The notes below the pieces were generated by a model. It was not told the DNA's origin and made no database searches. It saw only the letters and a list, made by a program, of their open reading frames with translations. The translations under genes were made by a program, and so were the position numbers. Shown here piece by piece: positions 1,194 to 25,040 of a DNA stretch of 59,008 nt. Position 1 is the first letter of the stretch, and every line of letters begins with the position of its first letter. Source of the stretch: a virus (Duplodnaviria; Caudoviricetes); the IMG/VR virus record IMGVR_UViG_3300044994_000135, positions 1 through 59,008 of that record, one strand, 5' to 3'.

Positions 1194-2615
1194 CTAAAGC
1201 ACCGGGCCCGACAAAGATCCACCGCCGCCGTCAGGCTTGGTCAGGTCGAGGTGCTTGGTCATCTCGAAAACGTAGTACCGGGCGCTGTCGCCGTAGTGGG
1301 TCCAGGTGTCCTTGGGCGGCTTGTCGATGTCCCACGTGCCCTCCTTGAGGGCCGTCTTGCGGTAGCTGTCGAGTAGGTTCTTACACCGGTAGTGGACGAC
1401 ATAGAGCCCGTAATCCATGGCCTGCGCCATCTTCTCCAAGCTCTGCCGGACGCCCGGGTTGGCACGCGGGGTCTTCATGGTCACGCTCGTGAACCCCGCC
1501 GACCGCAGGTACTTCACGATCTGGTCGTAGTCGCACCCGGCGTCGGTGTTGTGCACGGGGTTATACCCGGAACGGTCTCCGTGGATCTCGATGGGCGTGT
1601 GCCGCCAAGTGTGCACGGGGAACTTCCGCGCGAACTCCATGACTGCCGCCTCCAGCCCGCGCGCCCTACCGTCGGTCTCGTCGAGCGCCACAAACCGGAA
1701 TAGCCGCTCCTGAGAGAACCTGCCGGCGTAGAACGGCTGGCGCTGGTGAACGGTCCACGCGAGCGGGGCGACATTAAAATCCCAGCAGAGGGCCAGTGGC
1801 AACTCAGGGATCGGGCGCACGTCGTCTCCAACGACGTTGCGGGACTCGTTGAAGTTCCAGTAGGCCGTGGACTTCTGGAACGGGACGAATAGCCCGTAGC
1901 GGTAACTCTGGAGCTTGGACGGGTCGTAGGAGTAGCGCTGGACGAGCGCCTCGATATAGCCGGGGGCGAGGTTATGGGCGTTGTGATCAGTAGGGACAAT
2001 AAACGCCCGGACATTGCGTTTCTCATCGAGACGGTCGTAGCCAGTGCCGGGGATGTCGGCTAGCTCGGCGTAGTGATTGATGCCCTCTGGAACTGAGTCG
2101 CCGAGGCCCTGAAGGCACTTCGCCCTCTTATCCCGAAGCCGGTCCATAATGCGGTCAAACACGTCCGCTCTCGAAGTGGCCACCTCTGACCACCGCCAAT
2201 GCGTCAGGCTGGCAGACACAAAATGCACCGGGTTGTCAGCCGAGAGGAAGCTGATCCGGTGGTTGAGCCCCATCTGCCGAAAATCGATTGAGTTTGGGGA
2301 GCTTAAACGAACGATAAAGTGCTGCTTCTCCTTCCACCCGTAAACATCTTGAGCAACCTTGAGTGTCAACTCCAGGAGGGTTTCACAGATCCGGTAATTA
2401 GGCGCAACGGTCCAAGATCTCGTTGGGTTCGGGTCCGACTTTGGCGCGCCATTATCCAGAACACGTTGGAGGTCCCAGATTTGCCCGCCGTAAGATTTCC
2501 CAGCTCCTACCCCCCCTCGAATGAAAGTCACGCGATTGGGAGTGCGATCATTCATCGCATCCCAACACCACCAAGGGACATTTATTCGACGTGCGGATTT
2601 AACACCGGCTACCAA
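1194..2615 (-). CDS. terL: Terminase large subunit
   Basis: Walker A GGVGAGKS; RNase H-like nuclease motifs (WDFN, HGDRSG, HYGDSARY); directly upstream of the portal. Confidence 0.9.
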   Translation of the reverse strand: MVAGVKSARRINVPWWCWDAMNDRTPNRVTFIRGGVGAGKSYGGQIWDLQRVLDNGAPKSDPNPTRSWTVAPNYRICETLLELTLKVAQDVYGWKEKQHFIVRLSSPNSIDFRQMGLNHRISFLSADNPVHFVSASLTHWRWSEVATSRADVFDRIMDRLRDKRAKCLQGLGDSVPEGINHYAELADIPGTGYDRLDEKRNVRAFIVPTDHNAHNLAPGYIEALVQRYSYDPSKLQSYRYGLFVPFQKSTAYWNFNESRNVVGDDVRPIPELPLALCWDFNVAPLAWTVHQRQPFYAGRFSQERLFRFVALDETDGRARGLEAAVMEFARKFPVHTWRHTPIEIHGDRSGYNPVHNTDAGCDYDQIVKYLRSAGFTSVTMKTPRANPGVRQSLEKMAQAMDYGLYVVHYRCKNLLDSYRKTALKEGTWDIDKPPKDTWTHYGDSARYYVFEMTKHLDLTKPDGGGGSLSGPVL

Positions 2616-2713
2616 ACTGGGGGGTCAACGTAGACGGGCGTGACGTACTGATTCGATGACCTTCTCTCCCGGCGCGGCCACGCGCGGCCCGATTGTCGGC
2701 TCCGCTTTCTTCT

Positions 2714-4579
2714 TCATGGTCTCATCCTCAACCGCATCACGTTACCAATCCGCCGCCGGCCGCGCCGGGGCGGCTCTCCGTCGAGCTTCAGCGGCCCCTT
2801 CGGCGCTAACGGCTCCGGGGGGGCCGGAGAAACCGCACTCACCACTGCCCGCGCCCCCGGCTCCTGAACTACGGGCGGAGTATCGCCCGACCGCTCGCTC
2901 TGCGCAATGGCCCGGCGCACGCGCCCGGCGAGCGCCCACGGCTCGGGGGTGCTGTACCGCTCAAGCCGTACCGGCGCGATGGGCTTCCCCGGCCGCACGT
3001 CCGCCCAGAACAGCCGCGCCTTCTCGATTCGACCGCCGCCCATGTCCACCCACGCCACGCCGCGCTCGTTGGCCAGGCCGTGCGTGAGGTCCTCAGGGTG
3101 CACGATCGACCGGCGGTCCTCGCTCTCCCCGTCCACGCGCGAGCGGCTGGTGAACAGCCCGGCGTTGAGGTCGATGGGCCTCGCGGCGGACATGCCCAGC
3201 CCGCGCATGGTCGCGACGGAGCGGCTGCGGCGGACGGTGTCCCGCTCCCCGAACCACCCGCTCATGTCCCTGGCCGACTGCTCGTCGCCGAGGCGTAGGG
3301 CGATCTTGGTCCCGACGTTGGCCATGACGCGCTCGAAGAACTCCTGGCTCAGGCCGCTCGCCGGGTCCTTCAGGGCCCCGGTGCTCTGAGCGCCGAACAC
3401 GAACGCGAACCGGCCCTTGCGCGAGAGCTCGAATAGGCTCGCCCAGGTCGGCCCGAACGTGCACGCGGCCTCGTCGATGAGCACGAGGTGCGGCGACTCA
3501 AGCCGGTAGCCGGCGGAGATGATCTCGCCGATGGAGACCTCGAGGTCTTCGCGGATCATCCTGACAAGGCGGGCGCTGTTCTCCGCGTCCTCCAGCCGGG
3601 GCGTCACGAGATAAACCAGCTTTCGGGCCTTGATGGCCTCGGTCATCACCAGATCGGAATGCTCCGTGCAGAGCAGTCGCCCGTAGCTGGCCGCGAGCGC
3701 GTAGAACTCCGCCGCCACCCCGCGCAGGTTGTCCTGGATGGCCTGGGTGTCGAACGCCCCACGCGGGCCGCGGTAGGTGTTGGCGAGCGCCTCCAGGTCC
3801 CGCAGGTCCTCATCCCTTTGATGGGCCAGGAGCGTTTGCCGGATGATCGGGTACGCCGTCGGGAAGCTCCCCATGGCCACCGCGAGGTCCTCGACGGTCC
3901 ACGCGAGCGGCACGGCCTCCAGGGCCCGCACCACCCGGGAGACGGCATCGTGCGCGAGGCGGTCGTAATGTTTCGAGCTGACGAAGTCGGTCGTCAGGGG
4001 CAGGGCCGTCCGCAGGGCCTTGCGGGCCTTCACCTCCGGTCGTTGTCGGACACACGGCGCGAACGGGTTGTAGCTGCCGAGCTCTGGCCGGAGCGGGTCG
4101 ATCACGATCAGGTCCTCCGTACGGCCCGTGGCCTCGGCAATGGCCCGCACCTGGGCCAGGATGTCGGCGTCCCGCTTGGCGTCGAAGAACGTGCACCCGC
4201 CGCCCTGCGCCGCCTGCTGCCAGAACAGCCCGAGCATCCACAAGGTCTTGCCGGAACCCGTAGCCCCAAGGGCGGCCAGGTGCGTGCACGCTCGCTCGTG
4301 CGAGAGCCAGAGGGGCTCGCCGGTGTCGTGGTGGTACCCAATGAGGTAATGGTCCGGGCGAAACGAGGTAACAACGGCGCACGGCGCCCCATTCCAGTCT
4401 GGTGGTCGTTCGCGTTCGAGGCGCAGGTGGCACCCGAGCTTGTAGGCCAGTATGCCGAGGAGCAGCGTGACGGGCACGAGCGCCCAGACGGTGAACACGC
4501 CCGCCAGGAATGAGGCGGCGGTCAGGTGCGCGAGGACGGCTAGCTCGCGGCGCTGGGTGTCGGCGTAGCTCGCGCGCAC
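2714..4579 (-). CDS. Type IV coupling protein-like ATPase (TraD/VirD4/DotL family) with N-terminal membrane anchor
   Basis: N-terminal hydrophobic helices; Walker A GATGSGKT; FFDAKRD...GRTEDLIVIDP...SYNPF; Walker B LIDEAA; AQS motif; ANVGTKIALRLGD. Confidence 0.85.
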   Translation of the reverse strand: MRASYADTQRRELAVLAHLTAASFLAGVFTVWALVPVTLLLGILAYKLGCHLRLERERPPDWNGAPCAVVTSFRPDHYLIGYHHDTGEPLWLSHERACTHLAALGATGSGKTLWMLGLFWQQAAQGGGCTFFDAKRDADILAQVRAIAEATGRTEDLIVIDPLRPELGSYNPFAPCVRQRPEVKARKALRTALPLTTDFVSSKHYDRLAHDAVSRVVRALEAVPLAWTVEDLAVAMGSFPTAYPIIRQTLLAHQRDEDLRDLEALANTYRGPRGAFDTQAIQDNLRGVAAEFYALAASYGRLLCTEHSDLVMTEAIKARKLVYLVTPRLEDAENSARLVRMIREDLEVSIGEIISAGYRLESPHLVLIDEAACTFGPTWASLFELSRKGRFAFVFGAQSTGALKDPASGLSQEFFERVMANVGTKIALRLGDEQSARDMSGWFGERDTVRRSRSVATMRGLGMSAARPIDLNAGLFTSRSRVDGESEDRRSIVHPEDLTHGLANERGVAWVDMGGGRIEKARLFWADVRPGKPIAPVRLERYSTPEPWALAGRVRRAIAQSERSGDTPPVVQEPGARAVVSAVSPAPPEPLAPKGPLKLDGEPPRRGRRRIGNVMRLRMRP

Positions 4580-4785
4580 AACCGCATCCCAAACGATTCG
4601 AGTCTGATCGTAAACTCCTCGTGCCCCGCGAGCTCAGCCGCCAGCCGCTCACGGATGCCCTGGTCCGGGGTCGGCAAGAACAGCTCGCTCTGGGGTTGCC
4701 GGTGCCTCCACGCGAGCAGCGCGTAGCGCTTGAAGCTCTGGAAATACGTCTCGCTGTCGGGGAATGGGGCGTTCGCTACCGTCAT
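4540..4785 (-). CDS. Hypothetical protein
   Basis: 81 aa ORF overlapping both neighbours in an operon-like run. Confidence 0.5.
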   Translation of the reverse strand: MTVANAPFPDSETYFQSFKRYALLAWRHRQPQSELFLPTPDQGIRERLAAELAGHEEFTIRLESFGMRLCARATPTPSAAS

Positions 4786-4997: not shown

Positions 4998-5230
4998 TCA
5001 ACCTCTCTAAGTTGATCTTCAAGCGGGATCTCGCCATCGACAGGGATCGGACACCACGCATACAGGCCCGTTTTGGCTTCTGCTGGAAGAAACCCGTTTT
5101 CTGTTGTCCATGAGGCTATGGCGATCGTGCTTTTCCCGTCAAAGCTAGTTTGCCGGACAAGGAACAGGCCGAGTCGGCACTGCGGGACAGAATCGGGGAA
5201 CTTGCGCCAGTAGCACTCCGTGGTGGCCAT
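4994..5230 (-). CDS. Hypothetical protein
   Basis: ATG at 5230 (MATTECYWRKFP...) follows the methyltransferase; its stop overlaps the next start. Confidence 0.5.
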   Translation of the reverse strand: MATTECYWRKFPDSVPQCRLGLFLVRQTSFDGKSTIAIASWTTENGFLPAEAKTGLYAWCPIPVDGEIPLEDQLREVE

Positions 5231-5270
5231 GCCCCGCAGATTCTCACGCCCGGCGCGGGGGCGCAAGGGG

Positions 5271-5936
5271 TCAAAAAGGGAGGACGCTTTGTGCCATTCG
5301 GCGGGCTGCGATCTCGCAATAGCGTTCTTCGCGTTCAATCCCAATAGCCTTCCTCCCTAAATCCTTAGCGGCGCGCAATGTTGTTCCTGACCCCATAAAG
5401 GGGTCGATGATCGTGTTCTGTTTTGATTTGAGTTTTATGTCTGCCTGCTGGATACACCACCGCATTACTTCAACTGGTTTCTGCGTTGGGTGATATCGTG
5501 TCTGCTTTATGCGCTGCAACATTCCATTCCACATAAACCGTATCAAGCGAATAGCCCCTGGAAGCGTGGTCCAAGCAATCTCAGCATCTGCGAAGTCTCC
5601 AGAGTTTTCTTTATCCCATATCAGCCAACATTGGTTCTGAGGGAGGATATCCGTGTAATAGTTCCCCCCAAACAGAATACAGTTCCTCCCAGCGCGCAGT
5701 ACCAGGGAAAGTAAATTGTCGTCAATTCGCTCATTGTCCCAAGTAGCCACTGCATAATCTTTTGGAAGAGCCGCGGATCTGCGACTCTTATTCTTTCCAG
5801 CCGCTTCGCCAATGCCATATGGAGGATCAGTAAGTACAAGATCAACGTCCCTGATAGTAGGCAAAATCTCCTGACAATCTCCGTGGTAGATTAAAACTGA
5901 CTCATCTTGAAAGTACGGCCTGGCTACCATGTCCAT
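5271..5936 (-). CDS. N6-adenine/N4-cytosine DNA methyltransferase (beta class)
   Basis: TDPPY catalytic motif, HPTQKP and DPFMGSGTT SAM-binding motif; visibly more AT-rich than its flanks. Confidence 0.92.
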   Translation of the reverse strand: MDMVARPYFQDESVLIYHGDCQEILPTIRDVDLVLTDPPYGIGEAAGKNKSRRSAALPKDYAVATWDNERIDDNLLSLVLRAGRNCILFGGNYYTDILPQNQCWLIWDKENSGDFADAEIAWTTLPGAIRLIRFMWNGMLQRIKQTRYHPTQKPVEVMRWCIQQADIKLKSKQNTIIDPFMGSGTTLRAAKDLGRKAIGIEREERYCEIAARRMAQSVLPF

Positions 5937-18648: not shown

Positions 18649-20082
18649 ATGAGAACAATCATTGTCCTTCTTGCCACTATCACCGCAGTCCACGCCCAGC
18701 CCGTCACCCCAATCCGGGTGAGCAGCCTGGCCGACAGCGGGCCGGGGTCGCTCAGGGCGTGCGTCGAAGCCTCCGGCGGGGCACGGGCGTGCGTGTTCGA
18801 GGTCTCCGGGCGCATCCGCCTGCAGTCGTCTCTCAGGCTGACGCGGCCCGAAACGCACATCCTCGGCCAGACCGCGCCGTCGCCGGGCGTGCTGCTCACT
18901 AATGCCGGAGTGGCCGTTGAGGCCGACGGCTGCTCGGTTGAGCACGTTGCGATCCGGCCAGGGGATGGGCCCAGCGCGCAGAAGCCCGGCGAAAGGGACG
19001 CGCTGAAGGTGCTCGCCGACGACGTGCGGGTGCGGGGCGTGTCGCTATCCTGGGCCACCGACGAGAACCTCTCCGTCTACGGCGAGCGCGTGACCGTCAC
19101 CGACAGTATTATCGCCGAGGGCCTCCACCGCTCGATTCACCCCGAGGGGCAGCACAGCATGGGGGCGCTCGTCGGCGAGCGGTCGCGGCGGGTGGTGTTT
19201 CAGCGGAATGTGCTCATGTCGAACAGGGACCGGCACGTGCGGTGGAAATCCAACACCTCCGGGGCGATGGTCAATAACGTCGTTTATAACTGGGGCGGCG
19301 GCACTTCTGGCTGGAACGTCAACAACGTCACTGCTGCGTCAACGGACCTGCCGATTTTGCAGGATTTTGTCGGTAACGTGTACCTGCCCGGGCCGGATAC
19401 GCTCTCGCGTAACGCGGGCGGCTTTTACGCCGACAAGGGCGTCACCGCGCTTGGCTCGTGGTTTTTTATCCGCGACAATTTGACCCCGACCAGGCCCACG
19501 GGGGCAGAGCCCGAGTGGGCGGTTGCGAACGTCGCGCAGAGCGTTCACGGGGTTCCGGTGCCGCTGTTCGAGGGCCACTACCCGTTGCCGCTAACCCCGG
19601 CGACCGAGGCTCTGAGCGCGGCAGTCAGGCACGCGGGCGCGAGGCCCTGGGACCGCTCACTGGTTGACCTGCGGTTGCTCGGCGAGCTTGTCGGTCGTGC
19701 CGGTCGGATCCCGGACTGCGTTGAGGTCTGTGCCTCGCCAGATTTGCGGCGGGTGCCCGAGGGCGGCTACCCGGCCGTGGCTGAGAACTTCCGGCCACTG
19801 GGGGCGCTGCCGGAGGTGTTCGCCGACGTGGCCGCGATGCGGCAGTGGGCGGCGGGGTTTGAGGGGGGCTTGACGGGGCCGGTGCCCACGCCCACCATTT
19901 TCCTGACGCCAGGAAATAGCCCGACGCCGACCAGGACGCCGACGCCTAGGTCAACGAAAACGCCGACGCCGACCAGGACGCCGACGCCTAGGTCAACGTG
20001 CACGCCGACACCGACCAGGACGCCGACGCCGACGCCGACGCCGACGCTGAGAATGTGCTGGCTGCCGTGTCCGCCGCCCTAG
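18649..20082 (+). CDS. Secreted pectate lyase-like (PL1-type beta-helix) protein with Pro/Thr-rich tail
   Basis: Signal peptide MRTIIVLLATITAVHA; LADSGPGSLR, VFEVSGRI, GQTAPSPG, SLSWATDE and NNVVYNWG; C-terminal PT repeats. Confidence 0.85.
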   Translation: MRTIIVLLATITAVHAQPVTPIRVSSLADSGPGSLRACVEASGGARACVFEVSGRIRLQSSLRLTRPETHILGQTAPSPGVLLTNAGVAVEADGCSVEHVAIRPGDGPSAQKPGERDALKVLADDVRVRGVSLSWATDENLSVYGERVTVTDSIIAEGLHRSIHPEGQHSMGALVGERSRRVVFQRNVLMSNRDRHVRWKSNTSGAMVNNVVYNWGGGTSGWNVNNVTAASTDLPILQDFVGNVYLPGPDTLSRNAGGFYADKGVTALGSWFFIRDNLTPTRPTGAEPEWAVANVAQSVHGVPVPLFEGHYPLPLTPATEALSAAVRHAGARPWDRSLVDLRLLGELVGRAGRIPDCVEVCASPDLRRVPEGGYPAVAENFRPLGALPEVFADVAAMRQWAAGFEGGLTGPVPTPTIFLTPGNSPTPTRTPTPRSTKTPTPTRTPTPRSTCTPTPTRTPTPTPTPTLRMCWLPCPPP

Positions 20083-21525: not shown

Positions 21526-21860
21526 ACACGCAAACCGAAACCCCCCAGCCGAGCGGCGGCCCTACCTGCGGCAGGCCGCCGCGCCTTGCCAGTAACTGCC
21601 ACGCCGCCACCCCCGGCGCGATCGGGGTTCTGAGCCTCGCCGGACTCACGCCGGGGCAGTTATTAGACCGGCACTTTTCCGGGGACTGGGGCGATATTTC
21701 CGACGACGACCGGGCGGCAAACGACGCGGCGCTCGCGGGTGGCTCGCGTATTCTGTCGGCCTACCAGACCACGGCGGGGCGGGTCTGGTGCGTCACGGAT
21801 GCGGCCGGCGACGACGGGACGCGAGAACTGACAACGCTGTTGCTACCGGAGGAGTATTGA
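21522..21860 (+). CDS. Conserved plasmid/ICE-type hypothetical protein
   Basis: LLDRHFSGDWGD...ANDAAL...RILSAY...TTLLLPEEY, a signature I recognise from mobile elements. Confidence 0.75.
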   Translation: MNTQTETPQPSGGPTCGRPPRLASNCHAATPGAIGVLSLAGLTPGQLLDRHFSGDWGDISDDDRAANDAALAGGSRILSAYQTTAGRVWCVTDAAGDDGTRELTTLLLPEEY

Positions 21861-22546
21861 GCGCCGCCGAGGGGCTAATCCTGGAGTTCTGGCCGCACTT
21901 CGACACGTACCTCCGCGGCCTCTTCCGGCGCCAGCGCTACCCGGAGCACCTGCGCGACGATGCCCGGTCTCTGGCGATGCTCCGGCTCTGGCAATCGGCG
22001 CTGCGGTACGTGGCCAAAAGCCCCGAGACGACCCCCTGGCCGGTCTACGCCAAGGTGGCTATCAAATACGCCCTCCGCCGCACGCGCCGGCTGGCCCTGC
22101 GCGGCTGGGTGGTCCCGGACTCCGGCGCTGTGCTCGGGGCCTCCGGGGTCCCGTACCAACGCCAGCTGGGCATCCCCGAGTTCGTGACCAGCCACGACCC
22201 GCACCCGCACATTGACGCCCGTTTGGATGTTCGTCGCGCCGTGGCCGAGTTGCCGCCGAGGTACCGGCACGTCGTGAGCCGGTACCACTTCGACGGCTGG
22301 ACGTTCGCCGAAATCGCCGAGGAGCAGAACGGGGTTACCCGGCAGTGTACCCACCAGATGCTCCGCCGGGCCCACGGCTGGATGCGCGAGAGGGTACAAA
22401 AGGAGTGTTGCCACACGCCTGCACTGTCTCTGACGCAACGCGGCAGGCGTGCTAAACTGGACGCACGACACAGGCGCGTCAAGCCGGTGCAGCCGGGTGC
22501 ATCGAGAGGTGCCCGCCTGGTTGCGATGGCGAGCCGATCGGTGTGA
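21857..22546 (+). CDS. Sigma-70 family (ECF-like) sigma factor
   Basis: TTG start after GGAGGAG; region-2-like DDARSLAMLRLWQSALRY; region 4 LPPRYRHVV...GWTFAEIAE...VTRQ. Confidence 0.75.
   Translation: MSAAEGLILEFWPHFDTYLRGLFRRQRYPEHLRDDARSLAMLRLWQSALRYVAKSPETTPWPVYAKVAIKYALRRTRRLALRGWVVPDSGAVLGASGVPYQRQLGIPEFVTSHDPHPHIDARLDVRRAVAELPPRYRHVVSRYHFDGWTFAEIAEEQNGVTRQCTHQMLRRAHGWMRERVQKECCHTPALSLTQRGRRAKLDARHRRVKPVQPGASRGARLVAMASRSV
22430..22458 (+). promoter_or_regulatory. Putative sigma70 promoter for the structured region
   Basis: CTGACG, 17-bp spacer, TAAACT with extended -10 TG. Confidence 0.45.
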
Positions 22547-23160
22547 GAGGTACAGGCGACGCGGGTGCTGAGTGCGTGTTGCCCGTGGGCTACGGCGCGG
22601 GAGTATCGCGACGGAATACACGGCCCGGCGCGGCGGTCGGTGGGGTCATGCCCCCCATCGGTGAGCGAGCCCGACCCGGATAGGTTTCAGAGAGTCGATG
22701 CCGAGCAGCGAACGGTACGGGAGAGATGGCGGTAAGGCCCGATTTGCGCGTTACAAGCCTGAAATCTCGGCGGGGTATTCCCGCCGAGGATAGTGCCCGC
22801 GCGAGGGATCTCGCGGGATACTCCTCCGCCCCCGTGGTCGAGGAAGCCACTAGCGACGAGACTCTGATTCCGTTTGAAGCGCACTCAGTCAAAGCGGGAT
22901 CGTTTCGCGTGCGCGGTTTATCTGGATATACCGCAAGGTTTTTCATGTCGACGACGGCGGCGGCGCGGTTCTGGTCGGGCAACCGACCGGGCATGTTGCA
23001 CGCGGGCGAACGGAGGGGGCGAGTAGGGGACTCGGCGGGCAAGGCAGTCCGTATGGGCGAAAGCCCCCACCGGTTTTGATGCGGCCGATTCGCGGGTGCG
23101 CGCGCTACCGGAAAGGAGCAAATGCGTCGCACCCCGATCGAGCCCCTGGCAGGTGTCCCG
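22465..23160 (+). ncRNA. Candidate large structured non-coding RNA
   Basis: No credible ORF beyond the sigma tail. Hairpins at 22766-22788, ACC-GCAA-GGT (22930), GGTCGG-GCAA-CCGACC (22973), GGGC-GAAA-GCCC (23055) and GGGTGCG/CGCACCC (23094/23128). Confidence 0.5.
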
Positions 23161-23201
23161 GCGTTTCGAGAATATCGTCTAAATAATTCTCACTTTGGTC
23201 T

Positions 23202-23927
23202 ATGCAGGATTACCTCGTCAAGGACACCCACGCGCTCGTCCAGCAACTGGCGATGCGGCTGCTCAACCACGGGTACCACTTCTATTCCACCTCCTGGATC
23301 CCGGAGAGCAAGGACCCGCGCGCCGTCGACGTGAAGTTACTGCTCCGCTACGGCGGCTACCTGAGCAAGTTCGCCGTCCACCGGCGGCACAAGCAGCACG
23401 GTGCCGCGAAGGTGCGTTACTTGCGGTGCGGGCGGCTGGTGGTGCTGGTCGCCACCGCGGGGGGCTCCCCATTTTGGGACTGCGAGGGCAGGAACATCCG
23501 CGACGCCCGCGAGAGCCCGCTGCACGTCGCGGGCTACGCCCTCTCCCCCACGAGGGTGCGGCTCCACCGCGAGGTCTACAACCGCCTGGCGCGGCAGTAC
23601 CTCGACGGGTGGGCCGTCCGCCGGTCGGCGGCGTGGCTCGAAGAGAAGCTCCGCGCGCTGCCGTTCGACCCGGGGTACGCCGGGGTGCGGGCGCAGGTGG
23701 TGACCCTGGCCCGCGCGCTGAACGTCCGCCGCAAGGCCGCCCGCCTGCCCCCGGTCGCCATCGAGAACTGTTTCCGCACCAAGCGGCTCGCGCCACGCAA
23801 GGTCTACCTGCCGATCCCGGACGACGTGCGGCAGGCCGTTGAGCTATACGCGCCGACGCGCTACTCTCGGGATAGCTCCGACGAAACGGAAGCGAGCTCT
23901 GCTGGGAAGCAACTCGCCGAGGGATAG
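23202..23927 (+). CDS. Conserved hypothetical protein of mobile elements (Planctomycete-type from recall)
   Basis: LVQQLA...HGYHFY...IPESKDPRAVDVKLL...VRYLR; Arg-rich, probably DNA-binding. Confidence 0.7.
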   Translation: MQDYLVKDTHALVQQLAMRLLNHGYHFYSTSWIPESKDPRAVDVKLLLRYGGYLSKFAVHRRHKQHGAAKVRYLRCGRLVVLVATAGGSPFWDCEGRNIRDARESPLHVAGYALSPTRVRLHREVYNRLARQYLDGWAVRRSAAWLEEKLRALPFDPGYAGVRAQVVTLARALNVRRKAARLPPVAIENCFRTKRLAPRKVYLPIPDDVRQAVELYAPTRYSRDSSDETEASSAGKQLAEG

Positions 23928-24254
23928 TCGGGGCCGAGTGACGGTGAAGAGCTTTTAGACTTTGAGGAGTTTAAGGAGCCCGCACACTGCAAGGCCGGTC
24001 CTTCCGTGTGCGGGGGCTCACCTCACCAGAACTCTCCGGATGCCTCAAAAAATCCCTCTTGTGTAGTTTCGGTTGCTCTTTACATCCTCGTTGCGAGTAG
24101 AAGAAAAGTTTTTATCGTCGTCCCCGCCTTTCGCCCGTGCCGTGCCTCTCGGTGCGCGTCAGGGCCGAGGGGCGGATGACGCCTGAAAGGTTTTTACAAC
24201 CGGCAGATTGCCGCCCCTCGGTCCCCGTTACCCAACGCGCCGAGGAGGTGCAAA

Positions 24255-25040
24255 ATGTCGGAAGCGAAGTTGATCCTGCACAAGGGTGCGCGACAGGTGT
24301 CGCCGGACGAGCTGCGCGAGGTTCGGCCTCCGCAACCCGTCGGTCGGTGGCACCCGATCTCGCACCACCGCGTGCTGTCCGTCGTGACCCAGACGCTCAT
24401 TGAAGCGGGGTACGCGACGGAGAAGTCCCAGCTCGGGCTGTCCCCGGACGGCCACCGGTTCTTCGGCGTTCTGCGGCTGACGCACCAGATCGCTCACGGC
24501 GTGACGCTGGCCGTCGGGGTGCGAAACAGCAGCGACAAGACGTTCCCGCTGGGGTTCGTCGCCGGGTCCTCGGTTCTCGTTTGCGACAACTTGGCGTTCC
24601 GCTCGGAACTCCTCGTCCGCAAGAAGCACACCCGGTTCGGCGAGCAGCGGTTCGTGACGGCCATCGCCGGGGCGGTCGGGGCGCTGAAGTCGTTCCAGGA
24701 GGCGGAAGCCGAACGGATCGAGCGCTTCACCCGCGCGGAACTCACCGACGACCAAGCCGACGCGCTCATCCTCCGGGCGTACGAGCGCGGCATCATCGGG
24801 GCGCGCGACCTGCCGCGGCTCATCCGCGAGTGGCGCACCCCGGCGCACGCCGACTTCAAGCCGCGCACCGTGTGGTCCCTGTTCAACGCCTTCACCGAGG
24901 CGCTGAAGGAGCGCGTGACGGCGCGCCCGAGCGAGTACGCGCTCCAGACGATGCGGCTGAACGGCCTGATCGACGCGCACCTGCCCGCGCGGCCCGCCGT
25001 GCTGTCCCTCCCGGAGGCCCCGCCCACCGTGGCGGTGTGA
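24255..25040 (+). CDS. DUF932 domain protein
   Basis: WHPISH, GVRNSSDK, VLVCDNLAF, KKHTRF and TVWSLFNAFTE. Confidence 0.85.
   Translation: MSEAKLILHKGARQVSPDELREVRPPQPVGRWHPISHHRVLSVVTQTLIEAGYATEKSQLGLSPDGHRFFGVLRLTHQIAHGVTLAVGVRNSSDKTFPLGFVAGSSVLVCDNLAFRSELLVRKKHTRFGEQRFVTAIAGAVGALKSFQEAEAERIERFTRAELTDDQADALILRAYERGIIGARDLPRLIREWRTPAHADFKPRTVWSLFNAFTEALKERVTARPSEYALQTMRLNGLIDAHLPARPAVLSLPEAPPTVAV

Follow-up and report, generated by a model that had tools for sequence, protein, structure and literature searches.

A phage genome carries a probable reduced relative of circularly permuted group II ribozymes upstream of an acpG-like gene

Results

A group II-type RNA precedes an acpG-like gene

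We analyzed a virus record of 59,008 nucleotides (nt) (Duplodnaviria; Caudoviricetes; IMG/VR IMGVR_UViG_3300044994_000135, positions 1 to 59,008), a 59-kb sequence rated complete by CheckV (100%) and referred to here, over its whole length, as the window. On its + strand, at ~22472-23190, a conserved structured RNA lies between the gene for an ECF-type sigma factor and an open reading frame (ORF) of 241 amino acids, P0002. The RNA shares homology and covarying structure with circularly permuted (CP) group II RNAs, and together with P0002 it forms a conserved module, RNA first and gene second, that has the group II catalytic domain and scaffold. We consider it likely that the region is a reduced and divergent relative of the CP group II ribozymes, situated directly 5' of an acpG-like gene. 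The copy in the window is the most reduced that we found, and we regard it as a reduced variant and not as a regular member of the class.

CP group II ribozymes were described in 2021 by Roth, Weinberg, Vanderschuren, Murdock, and Breaker (PMC8637638) and have also been the subject of structural work (bioRxiv 10.64898/2025.12.30.696962; PMC13717195). As Roth et al. describe the class, its domains run in the order D5-D6-linker-D1-D2-D3-D4, the splice sites read NU and GGGCG, and the linker is freed as a circle of 15 to 86 nt (PMC8637638). The class is often accompanied by a neighboring gene for AcpG, a protein of 260 amino acids without known function (PMC8637638). The elements of the window's RNA, and the gene that follows it, are listed below; apart from domain V and the domain I core, domains were named by position and motif.

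22472-22490, + strand: 5' leader, one strand of a domain IV-like closing helix abutting domain V; pairs with 23067-23087
22490-22523, + strand: domain V, with AGC triad (22491-22493), GAGA tetraloop (22504-22507), and bulge (22513-22515)
22524-22563, + strand: shortened domain VI or junction, with no convincing branch-point helix
22564-22576, + strand: candidate 5' splice-site area; GGGUG (22564-22568) aligns with GGGCG or GGGAC of relatives
22638-22660, + strand: window-specific 8-bp hairpin, in the place of the AUAGCUCAA-type motif
22690-22905, + strand: domain I core, six helices, with conserved CACUAGCGACG
22690-22701 with 22853-22864, + strand: domain I outer helix, GAG..UCG..GC pairing with GC..CGA..CUC
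22766-22788, 22796-22817 (GGGA loop), and 22834-22850, + strand: domain I inner hairpins
22906-23020, + strand: variable region in a domain II-like position, containing two GCAA-capped hairpins
23021-23066, + strand: purine-rich junction and domain III-like block, with AGUA (23022-23025), GCAAGGCAGU (23039-23048), and CGAAAGC (23058-23064)
23067-23087, + strand: partner strand of the domain IV-like closing helix; pairs with 22472-22490
23094-23134, + strand: conserved 3' hairpin, GGGUGCG/CGCACCC, with an internal GGAA-type loop
23168-23191, + strand: hairpin GAGAAU/AUUCUC, ending 10 nt 5' of the start codon
23202-23927, + strand: acpG-like gene (P0002, 241 amino acids), predicted reverse transcriptase (RT) palm/thumb-like fold, no YxDD motif

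The evidence for group II ancestry begins with domain V. The Rfam model RF00029 matched 22488-22566 at 29.2 bits (E = 4.5e-4 to 1.8e-3; full model, relaxed threshold), and all pairs of the domain V helix are standard in that alignment. All 14 of its pairs are retained in the four phage-type sequences (the window and loci L006, L007, and L032), with changes on both sides. A hidden Markov model (HMM) made from 13 bacterial CP RNAs alone gave three collinear matches in the window. These were domain V (22491-22527, E = 2e-5), the domain I core (22689-22864, E = 9.6e-5), and GCAAGGCAGU (23038-23051, E = 0.33, collinear and alone not significant).

The position of domain V bears on an alternative raised by an earlier note on this DNA, which was made from the sequence alone and loosely compared the region to an ORF-less canonical group II intron. 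Such an intron would begin with GUGCG at 22572, have a degenerate domain V at ~23050, and end at ~23138. GUGCG is present at 22572-22576 and fits the canonical 5' consensus, and the region does have several GNRA-capped stems. However, GUGCG is not conserved in L006, L007, or L032, and domain V lies at 22490-22523, 5' of GUGCG, so that it precedes domain I; this position falls within the span given by the earlier note, where domain V had been overlooked. Rfam at E ≤ 10 gave no domain V near 23050, and the domain-V-like GCGAAAGC of the earlier note aligns instead with the ACGAAAG block of CP RNAs, a conserved piece of the domain III-like part. There would also be no exons to join, because the element is intergenic. 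A canonical intron is therefore very improbable. The idea of a group II-derived ribozyme was right about descent and wrong about anatomy.

The domain I core supplies the second line of evidence. Across the four phage-type sequences, 92.4% of cells in its helices were paired (37-49% in slid controls), and 15 pairs changed on both sides (1-5 in controls); none of 500 shuffles reached the paired or both-side values. A covariance model of this core from the same four sequences, R1, matched 11 of the 13 bacterial CP RNAs at the expected place (E ≤ 0.01). Scores ranged from 67.3 bits in L010 to 16.2 bits in L002, with E = 0.12 in L029 and no match in L003. In an alignment of 15 sequences, which was fitted to R1 and so favors the structure, 89.1% of cells were paired versus 36-44% in slid controls, 0 of 500 shuffles reached the observed values, 36 of 43 pairs had compensatory changes on both sides, and the covariation score was 0.69 versus ~0.1. 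By these counts, the domain I core covaries strongly. Two structures noticed in the earlier note belong to this core. The perfect 9-bp hairpin at 22766-22788 (CUCGGCGGG/CCCGCCGAG) exists and is one of the inner hairpins. The suspected long-range pairing is real, covaries in relatives, and forms the outer helix, in a register different from the one proposed (22690-22701/22853-22864).

These homologies also address whether the region might be an unrelated large noncoding RNA (ncRNA) of the GOLLD or ROOL kind, or a coding region on the - strand (22590-23132). Rfam reported no family at gathering score in the whole window, and a 180-amino-acid ORF does exist on the - strand. Yet R1 and the bacterial HMM tie the region directly to CP group II RNAs by homology. 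The ORF matches nothing in Pfam, and 1-nt indels within the conserved core break its frame in the alignment with relatives. Folding also favors the + strand over the - strand by 51 kcal/mol (minimum free energy of -341.9 versus -290.8 kcal/mol). We give these two possibilities almost no credence. The RNA is therefore not a new class of large ncRNA, a possibility that the earlier note had entertained. The Rfam search suggested in that note returned neither GOLLD nor ROOL and placed RF00029 below its gathering score; at E ≤ 10, the only matches in 22200-23400 were RF00029 and a chance match to Rothia-sucC. The description of the region as ORF-poor holds in a relative sense at 66% G+C, since a 117-amino-acid ORF on the + strand lies within it along with the 180-amino-acid ORF.

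The same RNA lies upstream of the same gene in plasmids and bacteria

We found homologs of P0002 on plasmids (from a planctomycete, Leptolyngbya, Calothrix, and Bacillus), on 2 IMG/VR contigs (L006 and L007), on 10 contigs of metagenome-assembled genomes, and on 18 metagenome contigs. On the planctomycete and Leptolyngbya plasmids, an unannotated gap of 1.4-1.7 kb lies 5' of the acpG-like gene. RF00029 matched in those gaps, on the same strand and above its gathering score (L002, 49.4 bits; L003, 47.6 bits; 2 of 3 loci scanned). A scan of 10 further loci gave an upstream match in 9 (at least 40 bits in 7), and a scan of 15 sources gave one in 4 (L029, L034, L019, and L028; 48.6-52.3 bits), 7 of the 15 having less than 600 nt of upstream sequence. 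Among 25 family loci with at least 1,000 nt upstream, nhmmer with the HMM from bacterial RNAs located the RNA 5' of the gene on the + strand in 22; these loci include duplicates (L018 equals L032 in the RNA region, L019 and L020 gave identical results, and L011, L013, and L014 gave near-identical results). The order of RNA and then gene was the same in three phage-like contigs and many bacterial loci. In L024, L026, and L033, nhmmer found no CP group II RNA in the 1.5-2.5 kb upstream of the acpG-like gene, and nothing was found there with R1 (L024 and L026) or with RF00029 (L024 and L033). The acpG-like protein can therefore occur without an adjoining RNA.

The bacterial RNAs, which we aligned with MAFFT, are CP group II ribozymes by their domain order and splice-site motifs. 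In 13 of 13, domain VI ends in ...UUCUAUCCRAU and is followed by a linker of 12-41 nt and then by GGGCGA. The ribozyme of plasmid pPNAP05 (Polaromonas naphthalenivorans), which Roth et al. examined experimentally, has domain V, ...CUCAAU, a 32-nt linker, and GGGCGA, in exact agreement with the 32-nt circle reported for P. naphthalenivorans (PMC8637638). No consistent EBS1 complementary to the 5-7 nt before GGGCGA was found in the 13 bacterial loci.

The window can be aligned end to end with L006, L007, and L032, and it is the outgroup of the four. Its RNA is 46-52% identical to the others (62-66% among themselves), and its protein is 44-47% identical (57-63% among themselves). A leave-one-out HMM, made without the window, recovered the domain I core of the window at 43.9 bits (E = 7e-16).

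There were no matches when we compared 22400-23250 with phage records by blastn, or when a bacterial CP RNA (that of L016) was compared with plasmids in the same way. A scan of IMG/VR with P0002 alone confirmed no relative. A pattern scan of IMG/VR returned 105 stretches, among which nhmmer recognized as true relatives only the L006 and L007 contigs that were already known. A BLAST-type DNA search in 3 records gave only a 77-nt piece, in the record of L006. Over 151 Planctomycetota genomes, R1 had 3 matches, none of the phage type.

Two observations concern the gaps themselves. In plasmid pTT8 of Thermus thermophilus (L005), the gap expected to contain the Thermus CP RNA gave no match to RF00029; at 5199-5332 (- strand) it matched RF02928 (Actinomyces-1 RNA) at 30.5 bits, with a gathering score of 39.1. 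Possibly, Actinomyces-1 RNA is a fragment of an RNA of the CP group II type. In L002 (CP036351.1, pK2D_1), the series of locus tags skips K2D_46590 exactly at the 1.7-kb gap (1780-3488) that holds the CP RNA, and a feature other than a protein may have been lost at this point from the record that PLSDB distributes.

The copy in the window is reduced

The leader and the segment after the domain III-like block can pair to form a closing helix of 17 bp (22472-22490/23067-23087; -27.5 kcal/mol versus -15.7 ± 2.8 kcal/mol for shuffled leaders, 0 of 500 as good). At the homologous place, shuffles did as well in 18 of 500 cases for L006, 207 of 500 for L007, and 163 of 500 for L032. This search was confined to homologous positions; a duplex search over the whole tail gave differing partners for each sequence and was not used. 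CP introns have a helix between the 5' leader and the post-domain III segment that reconstitutes the stem of domain IV (PMC13717195).

Between the end of domain V and the aligned 5' splice site there are ~40 nt in the window and 31-39 nt in L006, L007, and L032; the same interval, comprising domain VI and the linker, spans ~70-120 nt in bacterial relatives. RF00029 aligned domain VI weakly and with one nonstandard pair, and the branch-point adenosine would fall at 22559. As for the splice-site motif, L007 and L032 have GGGCG, L006 has GGGAC, and all 13 bacterial loci and the pPNAP05 ribozyme have GGGCGA. The bacterial consensus at the AUAGCUCAA-type motif is GAA.AGCUCAAC. Upstream of domain V, the phage-type alignment is conserved for only ~35 nt, compared with ~120 nt of conserved stems in bacterial relatives.

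In the variable region, both GCAA-capped stems of the earlier note are present (ACC-GCAA-GGU, 22930-22939; GGUCGG-GCAA-CCGACC, 22973-22988). The hairpin at 22973-22988 appears as a window-specific insertion in the alignment with relatives, which is unreliable at that point. Blocks of the next segment have counterparts in the bacterial consensus (caAGuAGgAgc, GCaaGGCAGU, and ACgAAAG), and the GAAA-capped stem reported there was found as GGGC-GAAA-GCCC (23055-23066). From the description of Roth et al. (PMC8637638), we infer that 23021-23066 corresponds to J2/3 and domain III; by the same description, the ACGAAAG block and AGUA probably form the loop-E-like base of domain III.

The closing GGGUGCG/CGCACCC helix of the earlier note was confirmed at 23094-23100 with 23128-23134. 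By eye, this 3' hairpin helix is present in 4 of 4 phage-type sequences with differing letters (CGUGC/GCACG, GGGUG/CACCC, GAUGC/GCAUC). The hairpin before the ORF has counterparts of other sequence at the equivalent place in L006, L007, and L032, and the bacterial loci have a comparable one. In the latter (L002-L034), the last ~60 nt before the acpG-like start share a hairpin of the UUUGGGAGACUGUGCCGCAAACAGUCUCC type, with a covarying stem and a conserved GUGCC..AAAC loop, that could serve the module in regulation or in protein binding.

A number of findings weigh against assigning the window's RNA to the relatives of CP ribozymes. The RF00029 match, at 29.2 bits, falls short of its gathering score (40). 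The window, L006, L007, and L032 have no convincing domain VI helix with a bulged branch-point adenosine in common; the window lacks room for a linker of at least 15 nt, since its ~40 nt would also have to contain domain VI. It has GGGUG or GUGCG in place of GGGCG, and a hairpin stands where all relatives have the AUAGCUCAA-type motif (also given as GAAUAGCUCAA-type). Upstream in the window, we saw no P1/P2 elements. The domain IV-like helix is no better than shuffles in L007 and L032. The alignment of the 3' third is poor, and RNAalifold results there rested on an unreliable alignment of the window. Leave-one-out nhmmer found only 22663-22861, and homology outside domain V and the domain I core is weak. 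Covariation was counted on alignments that gave the structure or were fitted to it. Neither R1 nor the HMMs gave anything significant on the RNAs of pPNAP05 or pTT8; since the models miss them, the link to these RNAs rests on motifs, domain order, and AcpG. Finally, in the comparison with shuffled sequences that the earlier note had set as a check, the region did not fold clearly better than its controls (z = -1.27 for the + strand, equaled by 1 of 20 shuffles; z = -1.03 for the - strand, equaled by 3 of 20). The comparative evidence for the RNA overrides this weak folding score. We do not file the RNA as a regular CP member because domain VI is short, GGGCG and the GAAUAGCUCAA-type motif are absent, and no P1/P2 was seen.

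The losses invite another explanation, namely that the RNA is a decaying relic of a CP RNA, devoid of catalysis or function in this phage and surviving solely as the 5' untranslated leader of acpG. The window copy is the shortest and alone lacks both GGGCG and the AUAGCUCAA-type motif, and L024, L026, and L033 have the gene without the RNA. On the other hand, the AGC triad, the domain V helices, and the whole domain I core have been kept with compensatory changes at 46-52% nucleotide identity, the RNA has diverged no more than the protein (44-47% identity), and of the four phage-type sequences the window has the strongest domain IV-like helix. A relic is unlikely, and we favor a reduced relative of the CP ribozymes.

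The AcpG-like protein has a predicted RT-like fold

P0002 had no match in Pfam, NCBIfam, PHROGs, PADLOC, or PDB sequences. Its family is large: a profile search at E ≤ 1e-3 recovered 1,294 cluster representatives, 809 of them with E ≤ 1e-10. Pairwise BLASTP did not match P0002 to TTHC007, the AcpG of pTT8, and all 20 records found by tblastn with TTHC007 were Thermus plasmids. Comparison of profiles with hhalign, using 76 sequences of the P0002 family and 25 of Thermus AcpG, gave a probability of 95.2% (E = 2.6e-8) over 164 collinear columns. By this profile comparison, P0002 is a remote homolog of AcpG.

We modeled P0002 with AlphaFold2 (pLDDT 92.7, pTM 0.85). The top rows of a Foldseek search with the model were RTs (retron, G2L4, group II intron-encoded protein [IEP], DRT, DGR, and MMLV), with a best E of 3.9e-4 and TM scores of 0.2-0.39. 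VIA-align, which is independent of Foldseek, compared the model with 48,161 chains and put RTs in all of the top 6 places; Z values were 6.9-8.1, and the alignments covered 157-179 residues in the palm and thumb. These were G2L4 (Z = 8.1, root mean square deviation 4.0, 163 residues aligned), DRT9 (7.9), two group II IEPs (7.8 and 7.6), DGR (7.6), and DRT2 (6.9); Prp8, telomerase, and the LINE-1 RT ranked lower. In the ESM Atlas, which uses its own model, the nearest structures outside the family were RVT_1 clusters that include group II RT/maturases (TM 0.55-0.58). A model of Thermus AcpG (pLDDT 88.6) behaved similarly. Its best full-length match was the group II IEP 6me0_C (Z = 7.9, 192 residues aligned), followed by G2L4, DRT9, 7uim_D, and DGR, and its top 2 Foldseek matches were group II IEPs (E = 0.018 and 0.19). 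Over three structure searches and two independent models, RTs came out on top, with TM 0.28-0.58 and Z values up to 8.1; the best matches of the two models, group II IEPs among them, lie at Z = 7.4-8.1.

The RT likeness has its own counterweights. It lies at the level of the fold, where Z values of ~8 or less are middling; RVT_1 or GIIM was found in none of 76 family members (E ≤ 10), and an hhalign comparison of the AcpG-like profile with 7 group II IEPs was not significant (E = 0.26). In that nonsignificant local alignment, the hairpin bearing YADD falls on Y73-L-R75 of P0002, which would then occupy the place of the catalytic motif. The earlier note had stated that the genome encodes no RT, which holds at the sequence level (PF00078 had 0 matches in the window) and not at the level of predicted fold, given the RT-like prediction for the adjoining gene. 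From fold predictions with middling scores and consistent ranks, we suggest that AcpG may be an RT-derived palm/thumb protein without polymerase residues and a candidate maturase-like partner of the RNA. According to Roth et al., AcpG had no known homology (PMC8637638). Our literature searches gave no paper linking AcpG to RTs and none on AcpG later than PMC8637638; going by main texts, AcpG is named in PMC8637638 and not in PMC13717195 or bioRxiv 10.64898/2025.12.30.696962.

Genomic surroundings of the module

Elsewhere, the window encodes a terminase, a primase, a helicase, a Gp2.5-like single-stranded DNA-binding protein, and an exonuclease. Run records give a hot spring or mat as the habitat of the sample. 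Upstream of the RNA, 21788-22546 (+ strand) is an ECF-type sigma-70 family gene (Sigma70_r4_2, E = 6e-8; TIGR02937, E = 1.9e-8; phrog_1740). Its frame extends ~45 codons beyond region 4, so that the gene shares sequence with the leader, domain V, and the domain VI-like part, and its TGA stop (22544-22546) is inside the RNA. The gene 5' of the RNA varies among relatives and encodes an SLT transglycosylase in L006.

The earlier note had placed a promoter, CTGACG-17-TAAACT, ahead of the RNA, at the following position.

22430-22458, + strand: promoter-like CTGACG-17-TAAACT, weak, 8 of 12 consensus positions

That proposal was not borne out, as a scan of 22300-24100 returned no promoter-like sites. 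The same scan returned no terminator-like sites, including between the RNA and the ORF.

A DUF932 gene (24255-25040, + strand, E = 2.8e-9) lies ~330 nt 3' of the acpG-like gene, and L007 has one at a similar place (3775-4713, E = 5.9e-6), which suggests that the RNA-acpG-DUF932 neighborhood is conserved in part of the phage clade. Farther upstream, a 477-amino-acid ORF (18649-20082, + strand) has a match to phrog_27797 (E = 1.6e-26), for which the PHROG annotation is pectate lyase, and could encode a depolymerase-type tail or host-surface enzyme.

Discussion

We propose that a phage has retained a shortened CP group II-type RNA next to an acpG-like gene. The RNA would run from the leader through domain V, a very short domain VI or junction, the domain I core, the variable region, the domain III-like block, and the partner strand to two 3' hairpins. 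By pairing with the post-domain III segment, the leader would close domain IV and bring domain V onto the domain I scaffold. RNA and acpG are probably part of one transcript, given that no terminator-like site separates them and that a conserved hairpin stands just before the start codon. The AcpG-like protein, which may be a catalytically dead descendant of an RT/maturase, would bind the RNA as a folding or stabilizing cofactor.

If active, the RNA would cut at the junction of domain VI and domain I (~22564) by branching or hydrolysis, which would give the acpG message a branched or new 5' end. The usual circle of 15-86 nt is unlikely to arise, because domain VI and the linker together have only ~40 nt. 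Catalysis as well as circle formation is doubtful on account of that short interval, of GGGUG, and of the missing AUAGCUCAA motif. Self-processing by the window copy is conceivable, with the odds in our view somewhat against it. As a tentative extension, AcpG could be a dead group II RT/maturase, and CP RNA and AcpG together a domesticated, nonmobile ribonucleoprotein (RNP) carried on plasmids and phages. In this phage lineage, the RNA would then have given up the exon circle and become a protein-assisted self-cleaving or branch-capping leader, or purely an RNP scaffold, and would exert control over the acpG message or over some other process in the phage.

The phage-borne and strongly reduced form indicates what may be dispensable (P1/P2, a long domain VI, and the linker) and what is kept (domain V, the domain I core, the domain III block, and the domain IV-like helix). 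Since the RNA in this clade is always directly 5' of acpG and on the same strand, the hypothesis of a cis effect, through a branched or processed 5' end of the acpG mRNA, is testable. The predicted palm/thumb fold would tie an orphan partner protein to group II IEPs, and the models suggest that AcpG may be the missing maturase-like cofactor.

Among known systems, the CP group II ribozymes are the closest. The window shares with them a domain V that lies 5' of the domain I core and the domain III-like block, all collinear. It also shares the AGC triad, bulge, and tetraloop of domain V, a helix between the leader and the post-domain III segment, and a purine-rich junction with a domain III block containing AGUA...GAAAG. 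In both, the RNA adjoins an acpG gene on a mobile replicon, and the hot-spring or mat habitat of the sample is a further likeness. The window's RNA differs in its length (~620-720 nt versus ~900 nt), in having ~40 nt for domain VI and linker where the class has domain VI plus a linker of 15-86 nt, in reading GGGUG and not GGGCG, and in lacking the AUAGCUCAA-type motif and any visible P1/P2. Its position directly 5' of the gene and on the same strand, constant in its clade, contrasts with the mixed orientations described by Roth et al. (PMC8637638). The window copy also differs in being carried by a phage genome; the word "phage" is absent from the texts of PMC8637638, PMC13717195, and bioRxiv 10.64898/2025.12.30.696962.

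The AcpG of pTT8, TTHC007, resembles P0002 in its length (259 versus 241 amino acids), in the motifs GY.(F/Y) and LP.F.GV..Q common to the P0002 family, in adjoining a CP group II RNA, and in a model that, like that of P0002, best matches the RT palm and thumb. The two genes differ in orientation, as the P0002 gene is co-oriented and 3' of the RNA, whereas the pTT8 gene is divergent. Group II IEPs and their relatives (G2L4, retron, DRT, and DGR RTs and the RT-like domain of Prp8) offer a likeness in the predicted palm-plus-thumb architecture of P0002 and in its genetic pairing with a group II-type RNA; with Prp8, P0002 also shares the apparent lack of polymerase catalytic residues. Unlike the IEPs, P0002 has no match at the sequence level and, at ~240 amino acids, no N-terminal fingers part, and its gene stands outside the RNA and not within domain IV.

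A last parallel is the lariat-capping ribozyme GIR1, a branching ribozyme that lies 5' of a homing-endonuclease mRNA and is derived from group I introns. The two differ in that ancestry, and branching by the window's RNA is only hypothetical. They are alike in that a branching-type ribozyme would stand 5' of a coding message, whose 2'-5' branched 5' end could protect the mRNA. A branched 5' end that stabilizes an mRNA is a possibility that Roth et al. raise for CP RNAs as well (PMC8637638).

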